DNA of 64,000 bases from an uncultured Gammaproteobacteria bacterium (lineage in GTDB: Bacteria; Patescibacteriota; Microgenomatia; Daviesbacterales; UBA10151), in NCBI GenBank assembly GCA_964394855.1, contig CAYMZD010000002.1, forward strand, positions 60,575-124,574, written 5' to 3'. Below the pieces are notes generated by a model. That model searched no databases. It was not told the origin of the DNA and saw nothing but the letters and a program-made list of their open reading frames with translations. This document shows positions 31,711-45,917 of the stretch, one piece after another. Numbering within the stretch: the stretch's first letter is position 1; each line of letters opens with the position of its first letter. The position numbers and the translations under genes are program-made.

Positions 31711-31747
31711 TTGACAAAAGTTAGCACTCATGATAAATTACTGCTAA
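31711..31747 (+). promoter_or_regulatory. hrcA promoter (TTGACA-17-TAAATT) overlapping a CIRCE-like inverted repeat (HrcA operator)
   Basis: ttgaca(31711-16); TTAGCACTC-atgataaat-TACTGCTAA at 31721-31747. The left arm is perfect CIRCE; the right arm matches 6/9. Confidence 0.6.
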
Positions 31748-31771: not shown

Positions 31772-32503
31772 ATGGATTTGACAGATCGGCAAAGAGCACT
31801 TTTAAAAGCTATTATTGAAGAGTACATTGACAGCGCTGAACCTGTTGGTAGTGAAGCGGTGGATAAAAAGTATAATTTAGGGGTCTCCCCTGCCACCATT
31901 AGAAACGAGATGGTGCATCTAACAGATATGGGTTATTTAAAACAGCCACACACATCAGCAGGACGTGTCCCCACCTCAATGGGCTTTAGATTTTATATTC
32001 AGGAGTTGATGAAGGAAAAGCAGCTGCCTGTGGCGGCTGAAGTGTCCATCAAGGAAGACATGTGGCAGGAGCGCTACCAACAAGATAAGTTACTTCGCCA
32101 AGCTGTCAAAGCTTTGGCCAAGCAATGTGACATGTTGGGTTTGGCAATAGATAGCGACAACCAAATTTATTATTCAGGAGCTGCCAATATTTTGGACTGG
32201 CCGGAATTTTATGATATTGATGTGACTCGCTTTGTCTTGAGCTTATTTGATGATCTACCGGTTGGCGGGTTGCAACAAATTATTGGTAAGGCAGAAGGAT
32301 CTGACCCAATTCATATTTTATTTGGCGATGAGTTGGAATTTGAAAATTTAGCGCCCACTGGATTTATTTTTACCAGCTATGAAATGGGGCCAAAAAGTGG
32401 TGTGATTGGAGTAATTGGTCCGGCCAGGATGAATTTTCCTCTGGTGATACCTTATGTCAAATATATTAGAGATTTAATTTATGAAGCAGGAAGGAGTTGG
32501 TAA
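31772..32503 (+). CDS. hrcA: heat-inducible transcription repressor HrcA (compact)
   Basis: N-terminal wHTH LTDRQRALLKAIIEEYIDSAEPVGSEAV; operon position before grpE-dnaK-dnaJ. Confidence 0.8.
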   Translation: MDLTDRQRALLKAIIEEYIDSAEPVGSEAVDKKYNLGVSPATIRNEMVHLTDMGYLKQPHTSAGRVPTSMGFRFYIQELMKEKQLPVAAEVSIKEDMWQERYQQDKLLRQAVKALAKQCDMLGLAIDSDNQIYYSGAANILDWPEFYDIDVTRFVLSLFDDLPVGGLQQIIGKAEGSDPIHILFGDELEFENLAPTGFIFTSYEMGPKSGVIGVIGPARMNFPLVIPYVKYIRDLIYEAGRSW

Positions 32504-36910: not shown

Positions 36911-38365
36911 ATGGCAGAAATGACACGTCCGCCCATAGTCACTATACTCGGCCATGTTGACCATGGCAAAACTACCCTACTTGATTTTATCAGGAAATCC
37001 TCTGTAGCAGCAAAGGAACATGGTGGGATTACCCAGCATATTGGTGCATATCAAGTTGAACATGATGGTAAATTAATTACTTTTATTGATACTCCTGGAC
37101 ATGCTGCTTTTGAAAAAATGCGCTCTAGGGGCGCTAAAGTGGCAGACATTGCAGTTTTGGTGGTGGCAGTAGATGATGGGGTGATGCCACAAACTATTGA
37201 GGCTATCAAACACATTCAGGAGGCAAAAGTCCCCATGATTGTAGCTATTAATAAAACAGATTTACCTGGCATAAATGTAAAAGTACAGCTGGAGAAGATT
37301 AAAAAGCAACTTTCAGACCAAAAAGTTTTAGCAGAAGAATATGGAGGAGATGTGCCCATAATTTCACTTTCTGCCAAAACCGGTGAAGGTGTGGATAAAC
37401 TCTTGGAGATGATCAGTCTGTTAGCAGAGCTGCATGAGCTTAAAAGTGAATCTGATATAGCGCCATCAGGAGTAGTGATTGAGGCTAATTTAGATAAATC
37501 CAGAGGCCCGCTGGCCACACTTTTAATAAGAAATGGCACTTTAAAAAAAGGTATACAGATTATAGTGGGTGGAGTAAAAGGTAAGATCAAGGGTATGTTT
37601 GATTTCAATGGGAAGAGTATAGAAGCGGCTGGCCCTTCTACTCCGGTGGAAGTGCTTGGACTTGAGAGTGTTCCAGGGGTGGGTGCTACTTTGGGACAGG
37701 AAATGGAACAAGAATCAAGAATGAAGCAGCAAGAGCTAAGCTTACTTGAAAAATTAAAGGCAGGAGAAAGTAAAACTCTAAAAGTGATTATTAAAGCTGA
37801 TAAGCAAGGATCGCTAGAGGCTATTGTCCATTCTTTGGACAAAATTAATAAAAATGCCAAACTGATAGAAGTTATTTCAAGCGGGACAGGAGATATATTG
37901 GAGGGTGATGTGAAGCTGGCTTCGTCTGTGGGGGCGATCATTATTGGATTTAATGTCAAGGTGGTACCAACCGCTGTTAAAATGGCTGAAACAGAGCATG
38001 TTTTAATAAGAACCTACAATATTATATATGAGCTGCTCTCGGAGCTAGAAGATGTTTTGGAGGGGATGTTTAAGGTGGGGCAAGTAGAGGAGATTTTAGG
38101 CAAAGCTAATATTATTGCTGAATTCCCCTTTGGAAAGTCAGAGCGAGTTCTCGGGTGTCGGGTCATTGAAGGAGTAATTAGTAAAGGATCAAAAATAAGA
38201 GTGAAAAGGGATGAAGAGGTAGTGGGCGAGAGTAAACTAAAGTCCTTAAGGGTTGTGAAAGATGAAGTGCAAAAGGCAGAAAAGGGTCAAGATTGCGGCA
38301 TGCTTTTTGATCCTGCCATAGATTTCCAAATAGGGGACACAGTAGAATCCTTCAGGGTAATATGA
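36911..38365 (+). CDS. infB: translation initiation factor IF-2 (short form lacking the N-terminal extension)
   Basis: G-domain [28 protein letters not shown]; C-terminal beta-barrels. Confidence 0.9.
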
Positions 38366-39393
38366 TAGAGAACTTTGATCTTTTCAGACCGCTACCATTT
38401 CTCGACACCACCCGCCAGTTGGCCAGACAAGCAACAGGAAGAGTGGGGCTTGAAGCCATGGTTTGGTATCCAGACCCCCCAACCTATCAATTTGTTAACA
38501 TGTTGGAGGAGGCTGCTAAAAGACAAGTTCAAGCACAGGCAAAAATAGATTACTATTCTTTGATGACCACTGATTTTCACAATAATCTTTTCCCCATGCC
38601 GCAACTAAGAAGAGAGAGAGGAAGAAAGACTCAAGAGATGGTTCAGAGGATGAGGAAGGCTGGAGTGTCAGTAGATCTTTTAAACCCCCCCAGTCTTTTG
38701 CAAAGATTAATACCCCAGTTGGGCAGAAACCATCGCAAAATAGGTTTAATTGATGGTGTTGGTTTTGTAATGGGTTTTAATCTTTCCAAATACAATTTTG
38801 ACTGTGAAGATATAGCAGTAGCTTTAACTGAACCACAAGCAGTAAAAAGATTAGCTGAAGTTTTTGAGGAAGCAGGTCTGGTGGAAAGAGATGATCGAGA
38901 GATTTACTGCGGCGGGAACACTTATTTATTAGTTGATTATGGTCGGGTTGGTCAATCTCTAATTTTAGATCGGGCAGTGGAGATGGTGAGGGGGGCTAGG
39001 GACTACGTGAGGTGGGTTAATCTTTTTCCTCCCAATGGTCGATTGGAAGTTGAGATGGCAAGAGCATCCAAAAGAGGGGTTGATGTGGAGGGAATTATTA
39101 CCAGGCCAGTTTGGGTTAGAAAAGCCAGGTGGGATATCAGGTTAATGCAGCTTGTGAATAGTCTCCAGTCTTATTCTCTTGGTAATCAGTTAGCTTTGGG
39201 ATATCACAATCCTGATATTCATGCCAAAGTTCTAGTAACTGATAATCAAACATTGGTAGGTTCACATAATTTAGTTTGGGAAGGTGTCTGGGCCGGCACA
39301 GAGGAGTTAGACATTTTTTCTACTAATCCTATTCTGGAGAGAAAATTAAATAGATATTATGCCCAACTTAAACTAGGTAGTCGGGCAGCTTGA
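38362..39393 (+). CDS. phospholipase-D superfamily protein with two HKD motifs (cardiolipin-synthase-like, no TM segment)
   Basis: HRKIGLIDGVGFVMGFN and HAKVLVTDNQTLVGSHN (HxKxxxxD...G(S)xN). ATGA overlap with the infB stop. Confidence 0.6.
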   Translation: MIENFDLFRPLPFLDTTRQLARQATGRVGLEAMVWYPDPPTYQFVNMLEEAAKRQVQAQAKIDYYSLMTTDFHNNLFPMPQLRRERGRKTQEMVQRMRKAGVSVDLLNPPSLLQRLIPQLGRNHRKIGLIDGVGFVMGFNLSKYNFDCEDIAVALTEPQAVKRLAEVFEEAGLVERDDREIYCGGNTYLLVDYGRVGQSLILDRAVEMVRGARDYVRWVNLFPPNGRLEVEMARASKRGVDVEGIITRPVWVRKARWDIRLMQLVNSLQSYSLGNQLALGYHNPDIHAKVLVTDNQTLVGSHNLVWEGVWAGTEELDIFSTNPILERKLNRYYAQLKLGSRAA

Positions 39394-39437: not shown

Positions 39438-40430
39438 ATGAAATACGATAGTCAACTAATAGAGTTGAAAAACCTGCTTCCGTCTGCCAAAAGCATTTTA
39501 ATTGCCTTACCTAGCAACTGCGATATGGACCGCTTCGCCGCCGGGCTGGCCCTTTTTTTATCATTCAATGCCCAAGGTAAGGAAGTTTCAGTAGTTTGTG
39601 ATGACACAATTCATGTGGCCCAGTCTCATCTTTTTGGGGTGAACCATGTCCAAAAAAATATACCCCAAACTCAAGGCGGTAATTTTGTTATCAGCTTGGA
39701 GGGAGTAGCTGTCCCCAACTCATCCTCCCCCCAAGGAGGACAAGCTCCAGCCTTGGAAAAAATGGATTATGTGGTAGAAGGCAATAATTTAAATTTAGTT
39801 TTCTATATTTTACCAGGTCAAACTTTTCAGCCTTCAAGGATAGTGCCCCATTATCAAGGTAGCGGTTTTAACCTAATTTTTACAATTGGTGCTGCCAATT
39901 TAAACCATTTGGGAAATATATATTTACAAAATCAGGGAGCTTTTTCTGGTGTTCATGTAGTTAATATTGATATTCAAGCGGCCAACACCTCCTTTGGCCA
40001 AACTAATGTAGTTGATAGCGCAGCTTCTTCTGTGGCTGAAATAATGACAGATGTGGTGGGAGCACTGGGGTTGCCTTTTGATGCAGATATTGCTTCAAAT
40101 TTATTGGCGGGAATTTTTGAGGCTACCTCCAATTTGACTTCACAAAATGTTAGTGCAGATACGCATCTCGCGGTGGCCAATTGTTTAAGAATTGGCGGCA
40201 GAAAACCGGAAGTCTTACAAAATGCAATACCCGCTAGCGGAGGTTTTGATTTAAGCAGTTTGATCAGCCCCAAACCCACAGTGGAAGCTTTTACTGCTCC
40301 GCCTATATCCAGTGAGCCACAACCTTCTCCAGAAGAAAGACCATCAGGGGAAGGATTGGCTGCTGAAAGTATCGAACCAGAACCAGGTTGGTTAACCCCT
40401 AAAGTTTTCAAGGGCGGTTCTGTGGGTTAA
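39438..40430 (+). CDS. degenerate NrnA-like DHH-family protein (DHH motif replaced, no DHHA1 domain) with Pro/Ser/Glu-rich tail
   Basis: Aligns from memory to NrnA around motif I (ILIALPSNCDMDRFAAGLAL ~ ILHRHVRPDPDAYGS) and motif III (VVNIDIQAANTSFGQTNVVDSAASSVAEIM ~ KIDHHPNEDPYGDLLWVDTSASSVSEMI). DHH is changed to DIQ, motif II and IV Asp residues are substituted, and the GGGH/DHHA1 domain is missing. Confidence 0.4.
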   Translation: MKYDSQLIELKNLLPSAKSILIALPSNCDMDRFAAGLALFLSFNAQGKEVSVVCDDTIHVAQSHLFGVNHVQKNIPQTQGGNFVISLEGVAVPNSSSPQGGQAPALEKMDYVVEGNNLNLVFYILPGQTFQPSRIVPHYQGSGFNLIFTIGAANLNHLGNIYLQNQGAFSGVHVVNIDIQAANTSFGQTNVVDSAASSVAEIMTDVVGALGLPFDADIASNLLAGIFEATSNLTSQNVSADTHLAVANCLRIGGRKPEVLQNAIPASGGFDLSSLISPKPTVEAFTAPPISSEPQPSPEERPSGEGLAAESIEPEPGWLTPKVFKGGSVG

Positions 40431-40462: not shown

Positions 40463-40538
40463 ACGCTTGAAAGTTAAGGATGACTTCTTGGCACCGAAGT
40501 TACTCCCTGCCCCGCTTGGCGGGACTAGAAAGGGTAAG

Positions 40539-40808
40539 ATGCCACTTGATGTAAAGAAAAAACAAAAGATTATTGAAGAGTTTGCTACCAAAAAGGGTGA
40601 TACAGGTTCTCCAGAGGTTCAAGTAGCACTTTTAACTGAACAGATTAAAAACTTGGCAGCTCACCTAAAAGAGCACCCGCATGACGTTCACTCCAGACGT
40701 GGCCTTTTATCTATGGTCAATAAAAGAAGAAGGCTGTTGCAGTATTTATTAAAAAAAGATGAAGAACGTTACAAGACAACGATTGACAAGCTTGGTTTAA
40801 GTAAGTAG
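40539..40808 (+). CDS. rpsO: 30S ribosomal protein S15
   Basis: [57 protein letters not shown] matches S15. The track's TTG-start extension (40467) is probably 5' leader. Confidence 0.85.
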
Positions 40809-40905
40809 TATTAGTGAGGGGTTTTATTGGAAATTGTAAATTGAGGATAAGGGTTATCCTTGTCTCCAGTTACCCAGTTTCCAAATGCCCCAAAACAAAA
40901 TTTAG

Positions 40906-43209
40906 ATGTCGAATATCATTACTAAAGAAATTGACCTAAATGGTCGAACGCTCAAGTTGGAAACAGGTAAGCTTGCTTTGCAGGCTAATTCCTCTGTGGT
41001 AGCCTCTTGGGGGGAAACAGTAGTTTTGGTGACAGTTTCCACCCAACCTTCACCAGAGGCCATAGCTTACTTTCCCTTATCAGTGGAGTTTGTGGAAAAA
41101 CATTATGCGGGGGGAAGAATTTCCTCTTCCAAATTTATCAAACGCGAGTCCAGGCCCTCTGATGAAGCTATTTTAACAGGTAGATTGATTGACCGCTCCA
41201 TCAGACCACTTTTTCCCAAGGATTTTCACCAAGAAGTTCAAGTGATAGTGACTGTGCTATCAATTGACCAAGCCAATGATCCTGACATTTTAGGCTTAAT
41301 TGGCACATCAGCAGCCCTGTCTATTTCTGCCATTCCTTGGCAGGGCCCATTAGGTGGTGCCAGAGTAGGTGTTAGTGATGGTACTTTGGTAGTTAATCCT
41401 ACCATTCAAGAGGCAGAACATCTTCAATTAGATGTCTTTGCGGCCTCAACTAAAGATAAAGTGGTGATGGTTGAAGCTGGAGGAAAGGAAGTGCCTGATG
41501 AGAAAGTTTTTGAAGCCATCAAGAAGGCTCACCAAGAATCTCAAGCCATAATTGGCCTCATAGAAGAGTTTACCAAAAAGGTTGGCAAAGAAAAACTAAC
41601 CTATTCTTCTTTGGCAGAAGAGGTGGAAGAGGCAATTTTAGAAGAAGTTAAAACCATAGCCAGAGAAAAAATTGAAGCAGCTTTATTTGATTCTGAACAC
41701 CCTTGGCATGAAGCAACAGGAGAAATAATTAAGACAGAACTAGCCATAAAATATGCAGAGGTTTTAACACCACAAATTGTATCTGGAGTATTTGATAAAG
41801 TGGCCAAGGAGATCATGAATGATGCTATTTTAAAGCAGGGTAAAAGAGTCGATGGAAGGGCTATGGATGAGATAAGGCCTATCTCCATTGAAGTAGGAGT
41901 ATTGCCTAGAACTCATGGTTCTGCCCTTTTCCAGCGTGGAGACACCCAAGTTTTATCAGTAGTCACTTTGGCGGCGCCATCTCTATCTCAAACCATTGAG
42001 GGTATGACAGGCGAAGAGCAGAAAAGATTTATGCACCATTACAATATGAGTATTAACCCATTTGCTACAGGTGAAGTAAAAAGAATTGGTGCTCCCAATA
42101 GAAGAGATATCGGCCATGGTGCACTGGTGGAAAAAGCCCTGAAAGAAGTGATGCCATCAGAAGAAAGTTTTCCTTATGCCATTAGAGTAGTTTCGGAAGT
42201 ATTGGCAGCCAATGCCTCCACTTCTATGGCCTCCCTTTGTGCCTCAACCTTGGCCCTGCTAAATGCGGGAGTTCCCATAAAAGAACCAGTGGCTGGAGTG
42301 GCCATGGGACTTTTATCAGACGAACAAAAGTTTCAAGTAATTACAGACATGCGGGCAGTGGAGGATTTTTATGGGGAGATGGATTTTAAGGTGGCTGGTA
42401 CCAAAGATGGTATTACTGTTATTCAAATGGATACAAAACTAGCAGGTTTATCCTTTGAAATTATTCAGCAGGCGCTAGATCAAGGTAAAAAGGCTAGATT
42501 GTTGATTTTAGATAAAATTAATCAGGCTGTGCCCAGTGTTGGTCAACTTTCTCCTTTGGCACCCAGAGTAGAAATTATTCATATAAAACCAGAAGATATT
42601 GGTAGCTTAATTGGGCCGGGGGGCAAAAATATCAACTCCATCATTGCCAAAACCAAAGCAGCAATTGATATCGAAGATGATGGAACAGTGATGGTTTCAT
42701 CAAGTAATGAGGAGTCTATCAATAAAGCCATGGCCGCCATAAAAGGGATGTTCCAAGAGATTAAGGTCGGCGAGGAGTTTATGGGTAAAGTGGTGCGTTT
42801 GGCTCCTTTTGGGGCTTTTGTGGAAATTTTACCTGGTAAAGACGGGTTAGTCCATATATCCCAAATGGCCCCAGGCCATGTGGAAAAAGCAGAAGATATA
42901 GTATCTGAAGGTCAGGAAGTCAAGGTCAGGGTGACTGAAGTTTCTCCAGATGGCAAGGTGGGTTTATCAATGCTTTTTGGAGACGATGTTAAACCAGAAA
43001 GAGAAGGCTCGCCTCGCTTCGCGGGCGGAGCAGGAAGACCTTCTGGTCGAAGCAGAGGTTTAGAGGGTGCTAGAGGTGGATTTGGAAACCGTCCTAGGTT
43101 TGGCGGAGAAAGACCAGGATTTGACAGAAGAAGGCCCGGTGGTTTTAGAGCTCGAGGACCACGTACAGGCGGGTTCAACCGCGGGGGTCGTGGCGGATTT
43201 AATAGATAA
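40906..43209 (+). CDS. pnp: polynucleotide phosphorylase (PNPase) with C-terminal Arg/Gly-rich (RGG-type) tail
   Basis: Two RNase-PH domains, KH (GPGGKNINSII) and S1 (GKVVRLAPFGAFVEILPGKDGLVHISQM), then ~60 aa of RGG/RGGF repeats. Confidence 0.9.
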   Translation: MSNIITKEIDLNGRTLKLETGKLALQANSSVVASWGETVVLVTVSTQPSPEAIAYFPLSVEFVEKHYAGGRISSSKFIKRESRPSDEAILTGRLIDRSIRPLFPKDFHQEVQVIVTVLSIDQANDPDILGLIGTSAALSISAIPWQGPLGGARVGVSDGTLVVNPTIQEAEHLQLDVFAASTKDKVVMVEAGGKEVPDEKVFEAIKKAHQESQAIIGLIEEFTKKVGKEKLTYSSLAEEVEEAILEEVKTIAREKIEAALFDSEHPWHEATGEIIKTELAIKYAEVLTPQIVSGVFDKVAKEIMNDAILKQGKRVDGRAMDEIRPISIEVGVLPRTHGSALFQRGDTQVLSVVTLAAPSLSQTIEGMTGEEQKRFMHHYNMSINPFATGEVKRIGAPNRRDIGHGALVEKALKEVMPSEESFPYAIRVVSEVLAANASTSMASLCASTLALLNAGVPIKEPVAGVAMGLLSDEQKFQVITDMRAVEDFYGEMDFKVAGTKDGITVIQMDTKLAGLSFEIIQQALDQGKKARLLILDKINQAVPSVGQLSPLAPRVEIIHIKPEDIGSLIGPGGKNINSIIAKTKAAIDIEDDGTVMVSSSNEESINKAMAAIKGMFQEIKVGEEFMGKVVRLAPFGAFVEILPGKDGLVHISQMAPGHVEKAEDIVSEGQEVKVRVTEVSPDGKVGLSMLFGDDVKPEREGSPRFAGGAGRPSGRSRGLEGARGGFGNRPRFGGERPGFDRRRPGGFRARGPRTGGFNRGGRGGFNR

Positions 43210-43230: not shown

Positions 43231-44253
43231 ATGGATAATCCTGTCCAAAATACAGATGAGTTAGTACAAAAAATTACTCAAGCCAATCTCCCTAAAGAAG
43301 TTGCAGAAAGATTACTGAATTTATTGAAGTTTCCAGGTCAAGGTGTAGAGCTAGAAAAGTTAATTGAATATATTGATTTTGTTTTAAGCTTACCTTTTAA
43401 TAAATCCAGTCAGGATATTCTAGATTTAGGAAGGGCCAAGCAAATTTTAGATAAAAACCATTACGGTTTAAAAACAGTCAAAGATAGAATTTTAGAGTAT
43501 TTGGCTGTTTTAATCTTAAATGCCAAATCAGGCAAACAAGAGAGTTTACGGGCACCAATTCTGCTATTTGTGGGGCTGGTGGGAACTGGTAAAACTTCAA
43601 TTGCTTATTCGATTAGTGAAGTCCTGGGTAGGCCTATTTTTAGAATTCCTTTTGGAGGAGTGGGAGACCCGCTGCAACTTCGTGGACAATCCCGAGTTAA
43701 ACCTGATGCAGAGCCGGGTCAAATTATGAAAGCTTTAAAAGTTTTAAAGGTAAACAATCCAATTATTTTGCTTGATGAGATAGATAGAGTGGCAGAAGAG
43801 GGGAGGGTCGATATGATGGGAGTTTTGGTTGAACTGTTAGATCCCCAACAAAATCATGCTTTTTTAGATCATTATTTAGATTTTCCATTTGATTTATCCA
43901 GGATTTTGTTTATCGCCACAGCCAACAATACCGGCAATATCGCCACAGCAGTGATGGACAGGCTTGAACCTATTCAAATGCCTGCTTATAGTGACGGCGA
44001 AAAATTAATCATTGGCAAAAACTATCTTTTACCCCAGGCCGTGGAAGAATCTGGGCTAACAGCCGGTCAACTGGTGATAGATGAGATGGTTTGGCCACAG
44101 ATATTAAGACCATTAGGTTTTGATGCAGGCATCAGGTCCCTGCAACGAACCCTACAAGGTTTAACTCGCAAAATAGCTAGGCAGGCAGTAGAAGGTAATC
44201 TTGGACCATTTACCATTACAACACAAAATATTGGAGAATATTTAATAGACTAA
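43231..44253 (+). CDS. stand-alone Lon-type AAA+ ATPase module (no Lon N-domain, no protease domain)
   Basis: Near-colinear match to the Lon AAA+ core (LDKNHYGLKTVKDRILEYLAV, Walker A GLVGTGKTS, FGGVGDPLQLRG, Walker B ILLDEID, LDPQQNHAFLDHYL, ATANN ... MDRLE). The ORF ends with TAATG coupling to rnj; no S-K protease dyad region follows. Confidence 0.7.
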   Translation: MDNPVQNTDELVQKITQANLPKEVAERLLNLLKFPGQGVELEKLIEYIDFVLSLPFNKSSQDILDLGRAKQILDKNHYGLKTVKDRILEYLAVLILNAKSGKQESLRAPILLFVGLVGTGKTSIAYSISEVLGRPIFRIPFGGVGDPLQLRGQSRVKPDAEPGQIMKALKVLKVNNPIILLDEIDRVAEEGRVDMMGVLVELLDPQQNHAFLDHYLDFPFDLSRILFIATANNTGNIATAVMDRLEPIQMPAYSDGEKLIIGKNYLLPQAVEESGLTAGQLVIDEMVWPQILRPLGFDAGIRSLQRTLQGLTRKIARQAVEGNLGPFTITTQNIGEYLID

Positions 44254-45917
44254 TGAAAACGTTTGGAGGAAATTTAAAAATTATCCCGCTGGGTGGAGTT
44301 GGTGATGTCACTAAAAATATGTATGTTTATGAGATGGGTGATGATTTAGTGATTGTTGATTGTGGAGTGGGTTTTCCAGATGAAGCCATGCCGGGAGTTG
44401 ATTTGGTGATTCCCGATATTTCCTACTTGCGTGATAAAAAACACAAAATCAAGGCTATCTTAATCACTCATGGTCATGATGATCATATTGGGGGTTTACC
44501 TTACATTTGGCCAGAATTACAAGTACCAATTTATACCCAAAAGTTGACCGCCGGATTTATCAGAGCTAAATTTAGCGAACACAATCTTCCCAAAAATAAA
44601 ATCTTGGAAGTTGCCTTAGATGCCAAATTAAAATTGGGGGTGTTTGATATTTCTTTTTATCAAGTTTCCCACTCCGTGCCAGACTCAACAGGCGTGGTGA
44701 TTAGAACGCCCGCTGGTACGCTGGTGCACCAAGCCGATTTTAAAATTGACTGGACTCCTGTTTCGGGACAAGTGACTGATGTGGGTAAAGCTGCTCAGCT
44801 GGGGGCGGGAGGAGTGGATCTTCTTTTAATTGATTGTTTAAGGATAGAAAAAGCCGGTTTTAATAAATCGGAGAAATCGATCGAGGAAACTTTCGCTAAA
44901 GCGGCAGAAGAAACACCGGGAAAACTTCTAATTACCATGACCTCTTCCAATGTATCGCGGATGCAGCAGGCAATCAATGTGGCGGGGAGGTTAGGTCGAA
45001 AATTGGCAGTGGTGGGTCGGAGCTTTGAAAATAATTTTCAAGTGGCCAGGGATTTGGGATATTTGCATGTTCCCCCGCATCTTCTGGTTGCATCGGATGC
45101 GGTCATGAGTTTTGCCCCGAATAAAATACTGGTGCTTATTGCCGGAGCGCAGGGTCAGCAGGGTTCGTCCCTGTCGCGGGCAGCCAACGGGCAGCACAAG
45201 CAGATTATTTTAAAAAGCGGGGATAGCGTGGTTTTTTCCGCCGACCCCATCCCCTCTACCGAGTCGGCCCAATCTGCCTTAATTGATACCTTAGTGAGGC
45301 TGGGGGTGGATGTTTATTATTCTGCCATCCAATCTGACCTGCATGTGAGTGGGCATGCAGCCAAAGAAGAGTTGAGACTGATGGTTAATTTAATAAGGCC
45401 CAAATATATGATTCCTATTGGGGGAACTTATCGCCACATGAAGGAATTTTCCCGTACTTTTCAAGAGATGGGTTATAAAAAAGAAGCTATATTAGAGCCG
45501 GTGGATGGTGATATTATTCAAATGGGTGCGGGTAAGATTAGCATTGTCGGTAAGGTGGAAGTTAAAAATGTTTTTGTGGACGGGTTAGGGGTGGGTGATG
45601 TGGGGCACGTGGTTTTGCGGGACCGTCAGGTCATGAGTGAAGAAGGAATTGTGGTAGTGGTGGTGCCGGTTGATCAACAGACAGGCAGTTTGGGTGGAGA
45701 AGTGGATGTGATTTCCCGCGGTTTTGTTTTTGAACAAATGGCAGAGGGGTTGTTGGAAGAAGCTAAGGAAGTAGTTAAAAATACCTTGTTGGGTCACGGA
45801 GGCAAAGTGTCGGACTGGAGGTTTATTCGCAGGATGATAGAAAACGAGCTGGAGCAGTTTTTATTTAAAGCAACAGAAAGAAGACCATTAATTCTGCCGC
45901 TGGTGGTAGAAGTTTAA
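44253..45917 (+). CDS. rnj: ribonuclease J (metallo-beta-lactamase/beta-CASP)
   Basis: ITHGHDDHIGG (HxHxDH), beta-CASP motifs, C-terminal domain; 554 aa. Confidence 0.85.
   Translation: MKTFGGNLKIIPLGGVGDVTKNMYVYEMGDDLVIVDCGVGFPDEAMPGVDLVIPDISYLRDKKHKIKAILITHGHDDHIGGLPYIWPELQVPIYTQKLTAGFIRAKFSEHNLPKNKILEVALDAKLKLGVFDISFYQVSHSVPDSTGVVIRTPAGTLVHQADFKIDWTPVSGQVTDVGKAAQLGAGGVDLLLIDCLRIEKAGFNKSEKSIEETFAKAAEETPGKLLITMTSSNVSRMQQAINVAGRLGRKLAVVGRSFENNFQVARDLGYLHVPPHLLVASDAVMSFAPNKILVLIAGAQGQQGSSLSRAANGQHKQIILKSGDSVVFSADPIPSTESAQSALIDTLVRLGVDVYYSAIQSDLHVSGHAAKEELRLMVNLIRPKYMIPIGGTYRHMKEFSRTFQEMGYKKEAILEPVDGDIIQMGAGKISIVGKVEVKNVFVDGLGVGDVGHVVLRDRQVMSEEGIVVVVVPVDQQTGSLGGEVDVISRGFVFEQMAEGLLEEAKEVVKNTLLGHGGKVSDWRFIRRMIENELEQFLFKATERRPLILPLVVEV

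Follow-up and report, generated by a model that had tools for sequence, protein, structure and literature searches.

The gene beginning at position 43231 on the forward strand of the window (i.e. the whole 64,000-nt stretch of contig CAYMZD010000002.1, assembly GCA_964394855.1, that was analysed here) encodes a stand-alone AAA+ ATPase derived from the Lon protease. It is a real, conserved and selected gene for a Lon motor that has no protease, and that has a rebuilt, acidic pore loop. The organism is a member of the Daviesbacteria, a lineage placed in the Microgenomates within the Patescibacteria, i.e. the candidate phyla radiation (CPR). On the basis of domain content, motif conservation, selection, clade structure and gene contexts, the protein appears to be a non-proteolytic, Lon-derived remodelling ATPase, a reading to which we assign a probability of roughly 0.55. 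Lon is treated as an indivisible fusion of ATPase and protease; here a bacterial radiation keeps the motor alone under strong selection.

The protein comprises a Lon AAA+ module and nothing more

The NCBIfam model TIGR00763 (endopeptidase La) matches the protein with E = 1.8e-89. The match is partial, covering profile positions 255-567 of 795, and its score of 301.2 bits lies below the curated equivalog cutoff of 608.05. The only Pfam domains found in the protein are AAA (PF00004) and Lon_lid (PF22667), with no match to Lon_C (PF05362) or to the LON N-domain. The best sequence match in the PDB is the Lon of B. subtilis (3m6a; E = 2.8e-70), while residues 245-579 of E. coli Lon (6u5z) align to residues 2-338 of the protein. 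On comparing an AF2 model of the protein with the PDB using Foldseek, the top 50 matches were all LonA AAA+ modules, aligned over nearly the full length. The model has a pLDDT of 69.7 and a pTM of 0.64, with low confidence in the loops at residues 154-156, 186-213 and 233-251. In its N-terminal region it predicts helices at residues 4-17, 22-31, 39-52, 66-76 and 81-100.

The protein is a complete Lon AAA+ module, comprising the three-helix bundle, the α/β domain and the lid, with no further domain. An initial annotation of this DNA, made from the sequence alone, had described a 340-residue open reading frame (ORF) plainly derived from Lon that stands alone with neither N-domain nor protease, and the profile, PDB and Foldseek matches all agree with this. 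The collinearity with Lon that it reported is also found, but it begins close to Lon residue 245 rather than at ~300, and runs to residue 579; the string that was quoted in support, LDKNHYGLKTVKDRILEYLAV, corresponds to residues 73-93 of the protein. That annotation further held that no Ser-Lys protease domain is encoded downstream, and indeed neither a Lon_C nor a Lon N-domain is encoded at any point in the 64-kb window.

The ATPase residues and those that in Lon couple them to the pore are conserved

Conservation was counted in an alignment of 91 sequences of the family (hereafter the short forms) together with seven full-length Lons. The features that define an ATPase of the HCLR clade of AAA+ proteins are all present, i.e. 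a Walker A sequence of the form GxxGxGK[TS], a Walker B of the form hhhhDE, the sensor-1 Asn, the trans-acting Arg finger and the sensor-2 Arg. The catalytic residues are without exception invariant (Table 1), and this includes the sensor-2 R302 (equivalent to Lon R542), present in 91/91. The corresponding N473, R484 and R542 act in Lon as sensor 1, arginine finger and sensor 2 (PMC7239648).

The position of the Tyr in the pre-sensor-1 (PS1) β-hairpin is occupied by Y/F215 in 91/91 short forms. Its aromatic partners in the N-terminal three-helix bundle (NTD-3H) are Y47 in 86/91 and W/F50 in 84/91, the latter being F50 in the window protein. The Arg-acidic pair beside the pore loop is formed by R/K155 (90/91) and D217 (82/91). 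In Lon it is the PS1 β-hairpin Tyr, the NTD-3H aromatics and an Arg-Glu pair that tie the nucleotide state to the position of the pore loop (PMC7239648). The hairpin aligns with that of Lon with no gap in the sequence and retains Y/F215 and D217; the confidence of the AF2 model is low at residues 203-213.

The initial annotation had spoken of intact motifs. This is borne out for the Walker A and B sequences, the sensors and the arginine finger, but pore loops 1 and 2 have been rebuilt, which had been overlooked.

The pore loops have been rebuilt

In Lon the Tyr of pore loop 1 and its hydrophobic neighbour grip the backbone of the substrate, and degradation needs both this Tyr and the Trp of pore loop 2 (PMC8503904, PMC7239648), the latter being Trp431 (PMC8503904). 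The pore loop 1 sequence RGHRRTY[VI]GAMPG is invariant in the seven full-length Lons. In the short forms the loop reads (R)G-x-S-[RK]-x-x-P-[DE]-A-E-P-G. The position of the Lon Tyr is occupied by R in 22 of the 91, F in 19, K in 14, S in 10, Y in 9 and L in 5, so that F or Y is found in 28/91. That of the Ile/Val is P in 52, A in 16 and S in 9. The window protein has K157-P158 in place of the Tyr-Ile/Val pair (the loop reads VKPD). The Gly of Lon pore loop 1 (position 159) is replaced by D/E in 88/91 short forms and the Met (position 161) by E, also in 88/91. The tip of the loop tracks lineage, being R/K in the Daviesbacteria type, F in the Levybacteria type, Y in the Curtissbacteria type and S in the Roizmanbacteria type, while the acidic flank is constant.

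The acidic loop was not found together with a protease domain. Amongst the AAA+ modules of 272 retrieved proteins, 0/135 of those with the acidic loop are fused to Lon_C, and every module that does bear Lon_C has another, non-acidic loop.

These observations bear upon the suggestion, made in the initial annotation, that the gene is one half of a split Lon. On this view genes located elsewhere would supply the protease half and possibly also the N-domain, and the halves would come together as an active ATP-dependent protease. The protein ends exactly at the start of the Lon interdomain linker, which is consistent with such a division. But the Tyr/Ile of pore loop 1 and the Trp of pore loop 2, on which degradation by Lon depends, are replaced, no acidic-loop module is fused to Lon_C, and the divergence from Lon is old (see below). 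A tblastn search using six Lon_C and six Lon N-domain queries gave no match in 977 kb (the window plus 83 loci), a result that excludes a nearby partner only. Elements for docking a peptidase were also sought, and there is neither a conserved C-terminal motif nor an IGF-type loop in the family. The C-termini are variable, ending 0-5 residues past the sequence N[LI]x[EQ][YF]L, and the recurrent [ILMV]G[FLIM] occurs only in the strand of the P-loop and in the core of the lid. A partnership with a separate peptidase in the manner of ClpX or HslU was rejected for want of such a docking element, and we consider a split Lon to be very unlikely.

The gene is widespread, under purifying constraint and long separated from Lon

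A word-indexed search found at least 120 clusters at 90% identity, having 332-375 amino acids and 68-77% identity to the query. This excepts the query's own entry in the NCBI database (P0001, 'AAA family ATPase [Candidatus Daviesbacteria bacterium]', GCA_016198205.1, JACQIZ010000003.1), which is identical to the window protein. In an exhaustive search of representatives the short forms reach down to ~43% identity. Some of them have low-complexity, Q/P-rich N-terminal extensions or C-terminal tails; no extra Pfam domain was found in any. A scan with one genome per species resulted in 80 loci. The lineages named among these are Davies-, Gottesman-, Woese-, Levy-, Curtiss- and Roizmanbacteria or generic Patescibacteria, with two labelled as Saccharimonadales/Saccharibacteria. 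Titles reading 'uncultured Gammaproteobacteria' are taken to be placeholder labels.

The reading frame is open in 80/80 loci, with 330-405 codons for amino acids in 79 and 303 in one that lies at the end of a contig, and none of the 80 copies is frameshifted or broken by an internal stop. Nei-Gojobori dN/dS values of the AAA gene were computed for 40 genome pairs and lie between 0.04 and 0.11 wherever dS is unsaturated. Those of the flanking genes in the same genome pairs are in the same range, i.e. 0.04-0.12 for pnp and 0.01-0.11 for rnj. The architecture is truncated relative to Lon, as might be expected of a decaying pseudogene left as a remnant of lon, but that explanation is refuted by the open frames, the low dN/dS and the retention of the catalytic residues in 91/91 sequences, and its chance of being correct is negligible. 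The initial annotation had argued against a pseudogene and proposed the dN/dS analysis; its position is upheld by values that match those of pnp and rnj, by orthologous loci that have neither frameshifts nor internal stops, and by the presence of the gene across related species-level genomes.

In a neighbour-joining tree all the short forms fall into one clade, together with P0165 (which also has no protease domain); since this is a distance tree with no support values the clade is indicated, not proven. No full-length Lon lies close, the mean distance from short forms to Lons being 1.22, compared with 1.01 among the Lons themselves. On these distances the split from Lon would be old, and not the result of a recent truncation. 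Intermediates having a degenerate protease domain were sought (P0165, P0226, P0239 and others) but none was found; the relatives have either a full Lon_C with canonical loops or no Lon_C.

We note a group of very large proteins encoded outside the window (P0121-P0126, and also P0151, P0157 and P0161), of 1000-3900 amino acids, that contain several tandem Lon-type AAA+ modules. In the four that were scanned with Pfam (P0121, P0122, P0123 and P0126) the N-terminus is hydrophobic, and one Lon_C domain comes after two or three modules that have a lid apiece. The pore loops of the group are non-acidic, and some copies are canonical, in a type-II-like 'stacked' Lon architecture. In the tree the apparent sister group of the short forms is made up of giant multi-module proteins, which is probably a long-branch effect. 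As members of the AAA family P0121-P0126 are ruled out by the non-acidic, near-canonical loops of the copies inspected, together with the presence of the protease domain.

The AAA protein might alternatively be a paralogue that modulates a canonical Lon whose gene lies in another part of the genome, forming mixed rings with this Lon or stacking upon it, and thereby altering its activity or choice of substrate. Co-assembly is conceivable given that the inter-subunit residues (the Arg finger and PS1 β-hairpin) are retained, and the proteins P0121-P0126 demonstrate that stacked or tandem Lon AAA+ modules exist in nature. But the loops inspected in the latter are non-acidic and near-canonical and they fall outside the clade of the AAA family, and there is no lon gene near any of the loci. 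Modulation of Lon is thus improbable as the function of the protein. Amino-acid composition did not pick out CPR Lons.

Linkage to the genes of RNA decay is frequent but not universal

In the window the AAA gene lies between pnp, encoding polynucleotide phosphorylase (PNPase), and rnj, encoding RNase J. The nearest recognised gene upstream is pnp in 65 of the 80 loci, and it is contiguous (i.e. within 100 nt) in 35. Unrelated insertions separate pnp from the AAA gene in 28 loci; these are lineage-specific secreted proteins, toxin-antitoxin pairs or the istA/istB genes of IS21. Downstream, rnj is the next recognised gene in 63/80 loci. Its start overlaps the stop of the AAA gene in 17 of these, lies within 10 nt in a further 17, and is 11-150 nt away in 25; a few of the large overlaps are only apparent, and arise because the longest ORF was called. 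Since pnp is contiguous in only 35 loci while the spacing to rnj is short, the AAA-rnj junction is the tight one, and this adjacency is kept even where IS21, toxin-antitoxin or other genes separate pnp from the AAA gene. The pnp-AAA junction by contrast marks a hot spot for insertion.

Other contexts are found. In seven Curtissbacteria-type loci the order is pnp, a gene for a conserved secreted protein, the AAA gene and ftsK, with rnj absent, and P0163 is encoded in a pnp...ftsK block that also has no rnj. In eight Roizman-type loci the AAA gene is next to groESL and has no adjacent rnj, with the AAA family still intact and equally conserved. The gene lies head-to-head with groES-groEL in 6/6 Roizmanbacteria-type loci for which genes were listed, and the same arrangement is seen in the distant P0271 subfamily (a Cpn10 gene, locus L087). 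The gene for P0147 (L085) has two M16 peptidase genes upstream and an M23 peptidase gene downstream, while those for P0158 and P0165 stand alone. Thus the pnp-AAA-rnj arrangement to which the initial annotation drew attention is common in relatives, but linkage to RNA-decay genes does not hold at every occurrence, the Roizman-type, Curtiss-type, P0147, P0158, P0165 and P0271 genes being different.

These contexts should be considered in relation to a possible role of the AAA protein in an RNA-decay complex of CPR type, as its dedicated ATPase subunit or as a regulator. The protein would bind RNase J and/or PNPase and remodel either these or ribonucleoprotein (RNP) substrates, in a role like that of a DEAD-box helicase. 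The frequencies of pnp and rnj as nearest neighbours point in this direction, as do the 17 overlaps and 17 spacings within 10 nt, the survival of the AAA-rnj adjacency where IS21 or toxin-antitoxin genes have been inserted upstream, and, in the window, the TAATG overlap and a three-gene unit with no terminator-like site. Against it, the family remains intact where there is no adjacent rnj, i.e. in the seven Curtissbacteria-type and eight Roizman-type loci and for P0163, P0147, P0158, P0165 and P0271. In addition, an acidic axial loop is ill-suited to the threading of RNA, and pnp...rnj...ftsK may be merely an inherited gene order, a similar order being present in Firmicutes. We regard this role as possible, though on balance unlikely. 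The initial annotation had proposed an unfoldase or chaperone that works with the RNA-decay machinery; the synteny with rnj behind this reading is frequent (63/80) but not universal, which weakens it, and the term unfoldase presumed that the motifs were intact.

A candidate client is to hand in the PNPase encoded in the window, which has a 78-residue RGG-rich tail following the S1 domain (residues 690-767; nucleotides 42973-43206) that contains 18 Arg and 23 Gly and has a net charge of +12. Its ending, ..DRGGRGGFNR, is conserved across the Daviesbacteria loci. Elsewhere there are tails of the Levybacteria type, which contain HPL[AS]xQFRRER, and of the Curtissbacteria type, ending ..RRRPPKRY, and basic PNPase tails accompany the AAA gene at most loci. 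But in L084, of the P0163 lineage, the PNPase is a tail-less protein of 697 amino acids, and the acidic loop of the AAA protein is still conserved. The RGG-rich tail is thereby ruled out as a family-wide client of the acidic pore and cannot be the general explanation of the loop, which also counts against a role in RNA decay; within Daviesbacteria it is a possible client. At the same locus (L084, 931-1404) there is a homologue of ribosomal protein S15 of 157 amino acids with a Lys-rich N-terminal extension of ~70 residues; the protein has 89 amino acids in the genome of the window.

A more specific proposal would make the Lon motor, with its acidic channel, a CPR-specific RNA-decay ATPase. Translational coupling would keep it in fixed ratio with RNase J, and it would engage basic, disordered RNA-binding segments (the PNPase RGG tail, ribosomal proteins) so as to assemble, recycle or dissolve RNase-RNP complexes. 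It might thus do a job that is performed elsewhere by DEAD-box helicases or disaggregases. We consider this proposal to be unlikely.

Probable mode of action

The reading that we prefer is that of a non-proteolytic remodelling ATPase. Because the trans-acting Arg finger and all the cis catalytic residues are invariant, the protein most likely forms a ring and, like Lon, hydrolyses ATP at the interfaces of its subunits; an invariant Arg finger acting in trans can be understood only in an oligomeric ATPase. The motor would no longer feed a protease, since no member has the protease domain, other loops have taken the place of those that thread substrate, and there is no conserved docking motif. 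In place of the axial loops with which Lon grips a polypeptide there is a conserved acidic loop P-[D/E]-A-E-P-G, the tip of which is variable between lineages (K/R, F, Y or S). The features through which, in Lon, the loop responds to the state of the ATP (the PS1 β-hairpin Tyr, the R155-D217 pair and the NTD-3H aromatics) are kept. The conservation of the acidic loop together with that of the coupling machinery points to continued use of the axial channel, though with different clients; our guess is that these are basic or disordered segments of proteins.

The protein would therefore be an ATP-driven motor for protein remodelling, or with chaperone-like activity, having an altered client specificity and serving as a housekeeping factor of the Microgenomates. 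In this Daviesbacteria genome the gene probably shares a transcript with pnp, and its translation is probably coupled to that of rnj, so that the protein would be made together with the enzymes of RNA decay. The groESL and peptidase neighbourhoods found in other lineages fit a role in proteostasis or remodelling, and the coupling to rnj in most lineages fits co-production with RNA-decay enzymes.

Four points weigh against this interpretation. That a hexamer forms with no protease domain is an assumption; the protease ring of LonA is generally considered to contribute to the stability of the hexamer. The absence of the pore-loop Tyr from the window protein could mean that there is no translocation of polypeptide, and that the protein instead works as a nucleotide-dependent switch. 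Confidence in the AF2 model is only moderate, as its pLDDT indicates. Lastly, the tight coupling to rnj in many genomes could reflect a role in RNA decay that is more specific than that of a general remodeller.

Features of the window and of the related loci

The coordinates of the gene, its functional elements and its neighbours are collected in Table 1. Direct reading of the sequence confirms the 21-nt spacing from pnp and the TAATG overlap with the ATG of rnj that were given in the initial annotation. The start of the gene at 43231 also stands, but the span had been extended to 44255, which is the last base of the rnj ATG; the coding sequence ends at 44253. No terminator-like site was found between pnp, the AAA gene and rnj in the window. 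The promoter scan was by consensus only, and the number of promoter-like sites is no higher than in shuffled sequence.

Table 1. Positions in the window of the AAA gene, its functional elements and its flanking genes. Residue numbers (aa) are those of the AAA protein; fractions are counts among the short forms.
Feature	Position	Strand	Remarks
pnp (PNPase, 767 aa)	40906-43209	+	directly upstream of the AAA gene, same orientation, 21-nt gap; Pfam RNase_PH x2, KH, S1
Best promoter-like site, upstream of pnp	40783-40811	+	TTGACA-17-TAGTAT; consensus match only
Stand-alone Lon-type AAA+ ATPase, coding sequence	43231-44253	+	ATG start; 340 aa + stop
N-terminal helical region (~aa 8-100), equivalent of Lon NTD three-helix bundle	43252-43530	+	aligns to Lon 246-340
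Walker A, GLVGTGKT (aa 115-122)	43573-43596	+	G115, G118, G120, K121 in 91/91
Rebuilt pore loop 1, RGQSRVKPDAEPG (aa 151-163)	43681-43719	+	Lon equivalent RGHRRTY[VI]GAMPG
Walker B, ILLDEIDR (aa 179-186)	43765-43788	+	D182, E183 in 91/91
Pore-loop-2 region, VAEEGRVDMMG (aa 187-197)	43789-43821	+	F/W aromatic of Lon replaced by G/A/H
Sensor-1 Asn N232 (= Lon N473)	43924-43926	+	91/91
Trans-acting arginine finger R244 (= Lon R484)	43960-43962	+	91/91; D243 likewise 91/91
Lon-type lid (small α) domain (aa 272-323)	44044-44199	+	Pfam PF22667; contains sensor-2 R302 (nt 44134-44136)
TAATG stop/start overlap of the AAA gene with rnj	44251-44255	+	TAA 44251-44253, ATG 44253-44255; read gacTAATGaaa
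rnj (RNase J, 554 aa)	44253-45917	+	downstream gene; NCBIfam TIGR00649 523 bits, cutoff 400

Upstream of pnp the mechanically called ORF for rpsO (40467-40808) has 113 amino acids starting from a TTG, and the deposited call has 89 (40539-40808); the longer form is probably an artefact of choosing the longest ORF. An ORF of 330 amino acids on the forward strand (39438-40430) has no Pfam match, but in the majority of the 80 loci it is conserved between infB and rpsO; it is an unannotated, syntenic housekeeping gene. Between it and infB is a PLD-like (PLDc_2) gene (38362-39393, forward strand) that is found in this genome only, among the loci compared, and which looks like a lineage-specific insertion into the conserved cluster.

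In the Curtissbacteria-type loci L055, L064, L071 and L051 a conserved protein of ~330-350 amino acids is encoded between pnp and the AAA gene. It has an N-terminal hydrophobic segment and ends ..FSGL(I/M)(N/M)(L/I)K, and in the three loci where the genes directly abut its stop overlaps the start of the AAA gene. In L051 (1924-5931) IS21-type istA/istB genes and a toxin-antitoxin-like pair lie between pnp and the AAA gene, and there are other insertions at the same junction elsewhere.

Five Roizmanbacteria-type loci (L060, L074, L079, L082 and L083) have a conserved motif TTGTCAA ... (T)CTGCTAA in the 40 nt upstream of the AAA gene, with its end 3-6 nt before the ATG. The TTGTCAA part alone is present in L073, and the motif is absent from L063 and L072; the upstream sequences of L074 and L082 look alike. 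Judged from its sequence, this element looks like a promoter, possibly giving rise to a leaderless mRNA. Shared control with groESL by HrcA and CIRCE was considered and rejected. There is no CIRCE-like site in the intergenic regions between groES and the AAA gene, the lone match (in L082) lying within the coding part of the AAA gene. A single CIRCE-like inverted repeat, TTAGCACTC-N9-TACTGCTAA, occurs in the window, at 31721-31747, just upstream of an ORF at 31772. This ORF was taken as hrcA, and is followed by grpE-, dnaK- and dnaJ-like ORFs; Pfam matches support the identification of Hsp70 and DnaJ, while hrcA and grpE were assigned by eye.

Annotation and significance

Proteins of the family are named 'ATP-dependent Lon protease' by the JGI. 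No curated NCBIfam model claims the window protein, and the NCBI name 'AAA family ATPase' is correct but uninformative. To judge from its sequence features the protein should not be filed as a Lon protease, because the N-domain, the S16 domain, the equivalog score and the pore-loop signature all fail. As a consequence of the JGI label, metabolic and proteostasis reconstructions of CPR organisms may count a Lon protease that is absent. We found no description of the family in the literature searched, which leaves out most subscription journals and is not proof of novelty, and searches there that paired a CPR or Patescibacteria name with Lon gave no paper.

The loops that have changed are exactly those that define the threading of substrate, so that the family offers a natural experiment in which a Lon ATPase ring operates with neither proteolysis nor an aromatic paddle. 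Should the link with RNase J prove to be physical, the family would represent a degradosome ATPase of a new kind, in organisms whose genomes are minimal.

Comparison with known systems

The closest comparison is with LonA (of E. coli, B. subtilis, M. taiwanensis and Y. pestis, and human LONP1), the AAA+ module of which is 35-45% identical to the whole of the AAA protein (E ~1e-70). The two share the order of NTD-3H, α/β and lid domains, the Walker A and B, sensor-1, Arg-finger and sensor-2 residues, and the aromatic of the PS1 β-hairpin. They differ in that LonA has an N-terminal substrate-binding domain and an S16 Ser-Lys protease domain, both of which are missing from the AAA protein. The P-loop is GPPGVGKT in LonA and GLVGTGKT in the AAA protein. 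LonA has the pore loop 1 sequence RRTY[VI]GAM and an aromatic in pore loop 2, whereas the AAA family has S[RK]xxP[DE]AE and has lost the aromatic. The isolated AAA+ module of E. coli Lon (6n2i), a laboratory construct, has near-identical boundaries, with residues 2-338 of the protein corresponding to 5-339 of the chain (Foldseek TM 0.57/0.58). However, that is an engineered fragment of a protease, while the AAA protein is encoded by a gene that occurs in nature, is under selection and stands alone, and its pore loops have been rebuilt.

BrxL is a Lon-like AAA+ DNA-binding ring of BREX, and so is related to Lon and put to a non-proteolytic use (PMC10164562). It is found in a context of defence, in contrast to the housekeeping genes here, and the AAA protein has no significant match to the BrxL model in PADLOC. 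Membership of a defence system was rejected; the best PADLOC matches are to DolB (4.1e-06) and IetA (1.2e-05), and are partial and due to generic AAA only.

ClpX and HslU retain aromatic pore loops together with elements for docking a peptidase (the IGF loop, the C-terminal tail). Like the AAA protein they are members of the HCLR clade of AAA+ proteins (PMC7239648), and each is encoded by a free-standing ATPase gene. The docking elements are theirs, however, and there is no such conserved element in the AAA family.

Proteolytically inactive forms of Lon (yeast Pim1 and human LONP1) have chaperone-like activity, so that a Lon ATPase can be useful in the absence of proteolysis. These differ from the AAA protein in keeping the N-domain, canonical pore loops and an inactivated protease ring. 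Other AAA+ proteases have been repurposed after the loss of one activity. LonC is a Lon-like protease with a degenerate ATPase, and the FtsHi proteins are protease-dead homologues of FtsH. In LonC the protease has been kept and the ATPase lost, i.e. the opposite of the AAA family, while FtsHi keeps a dead protease domain that here has been deleted.

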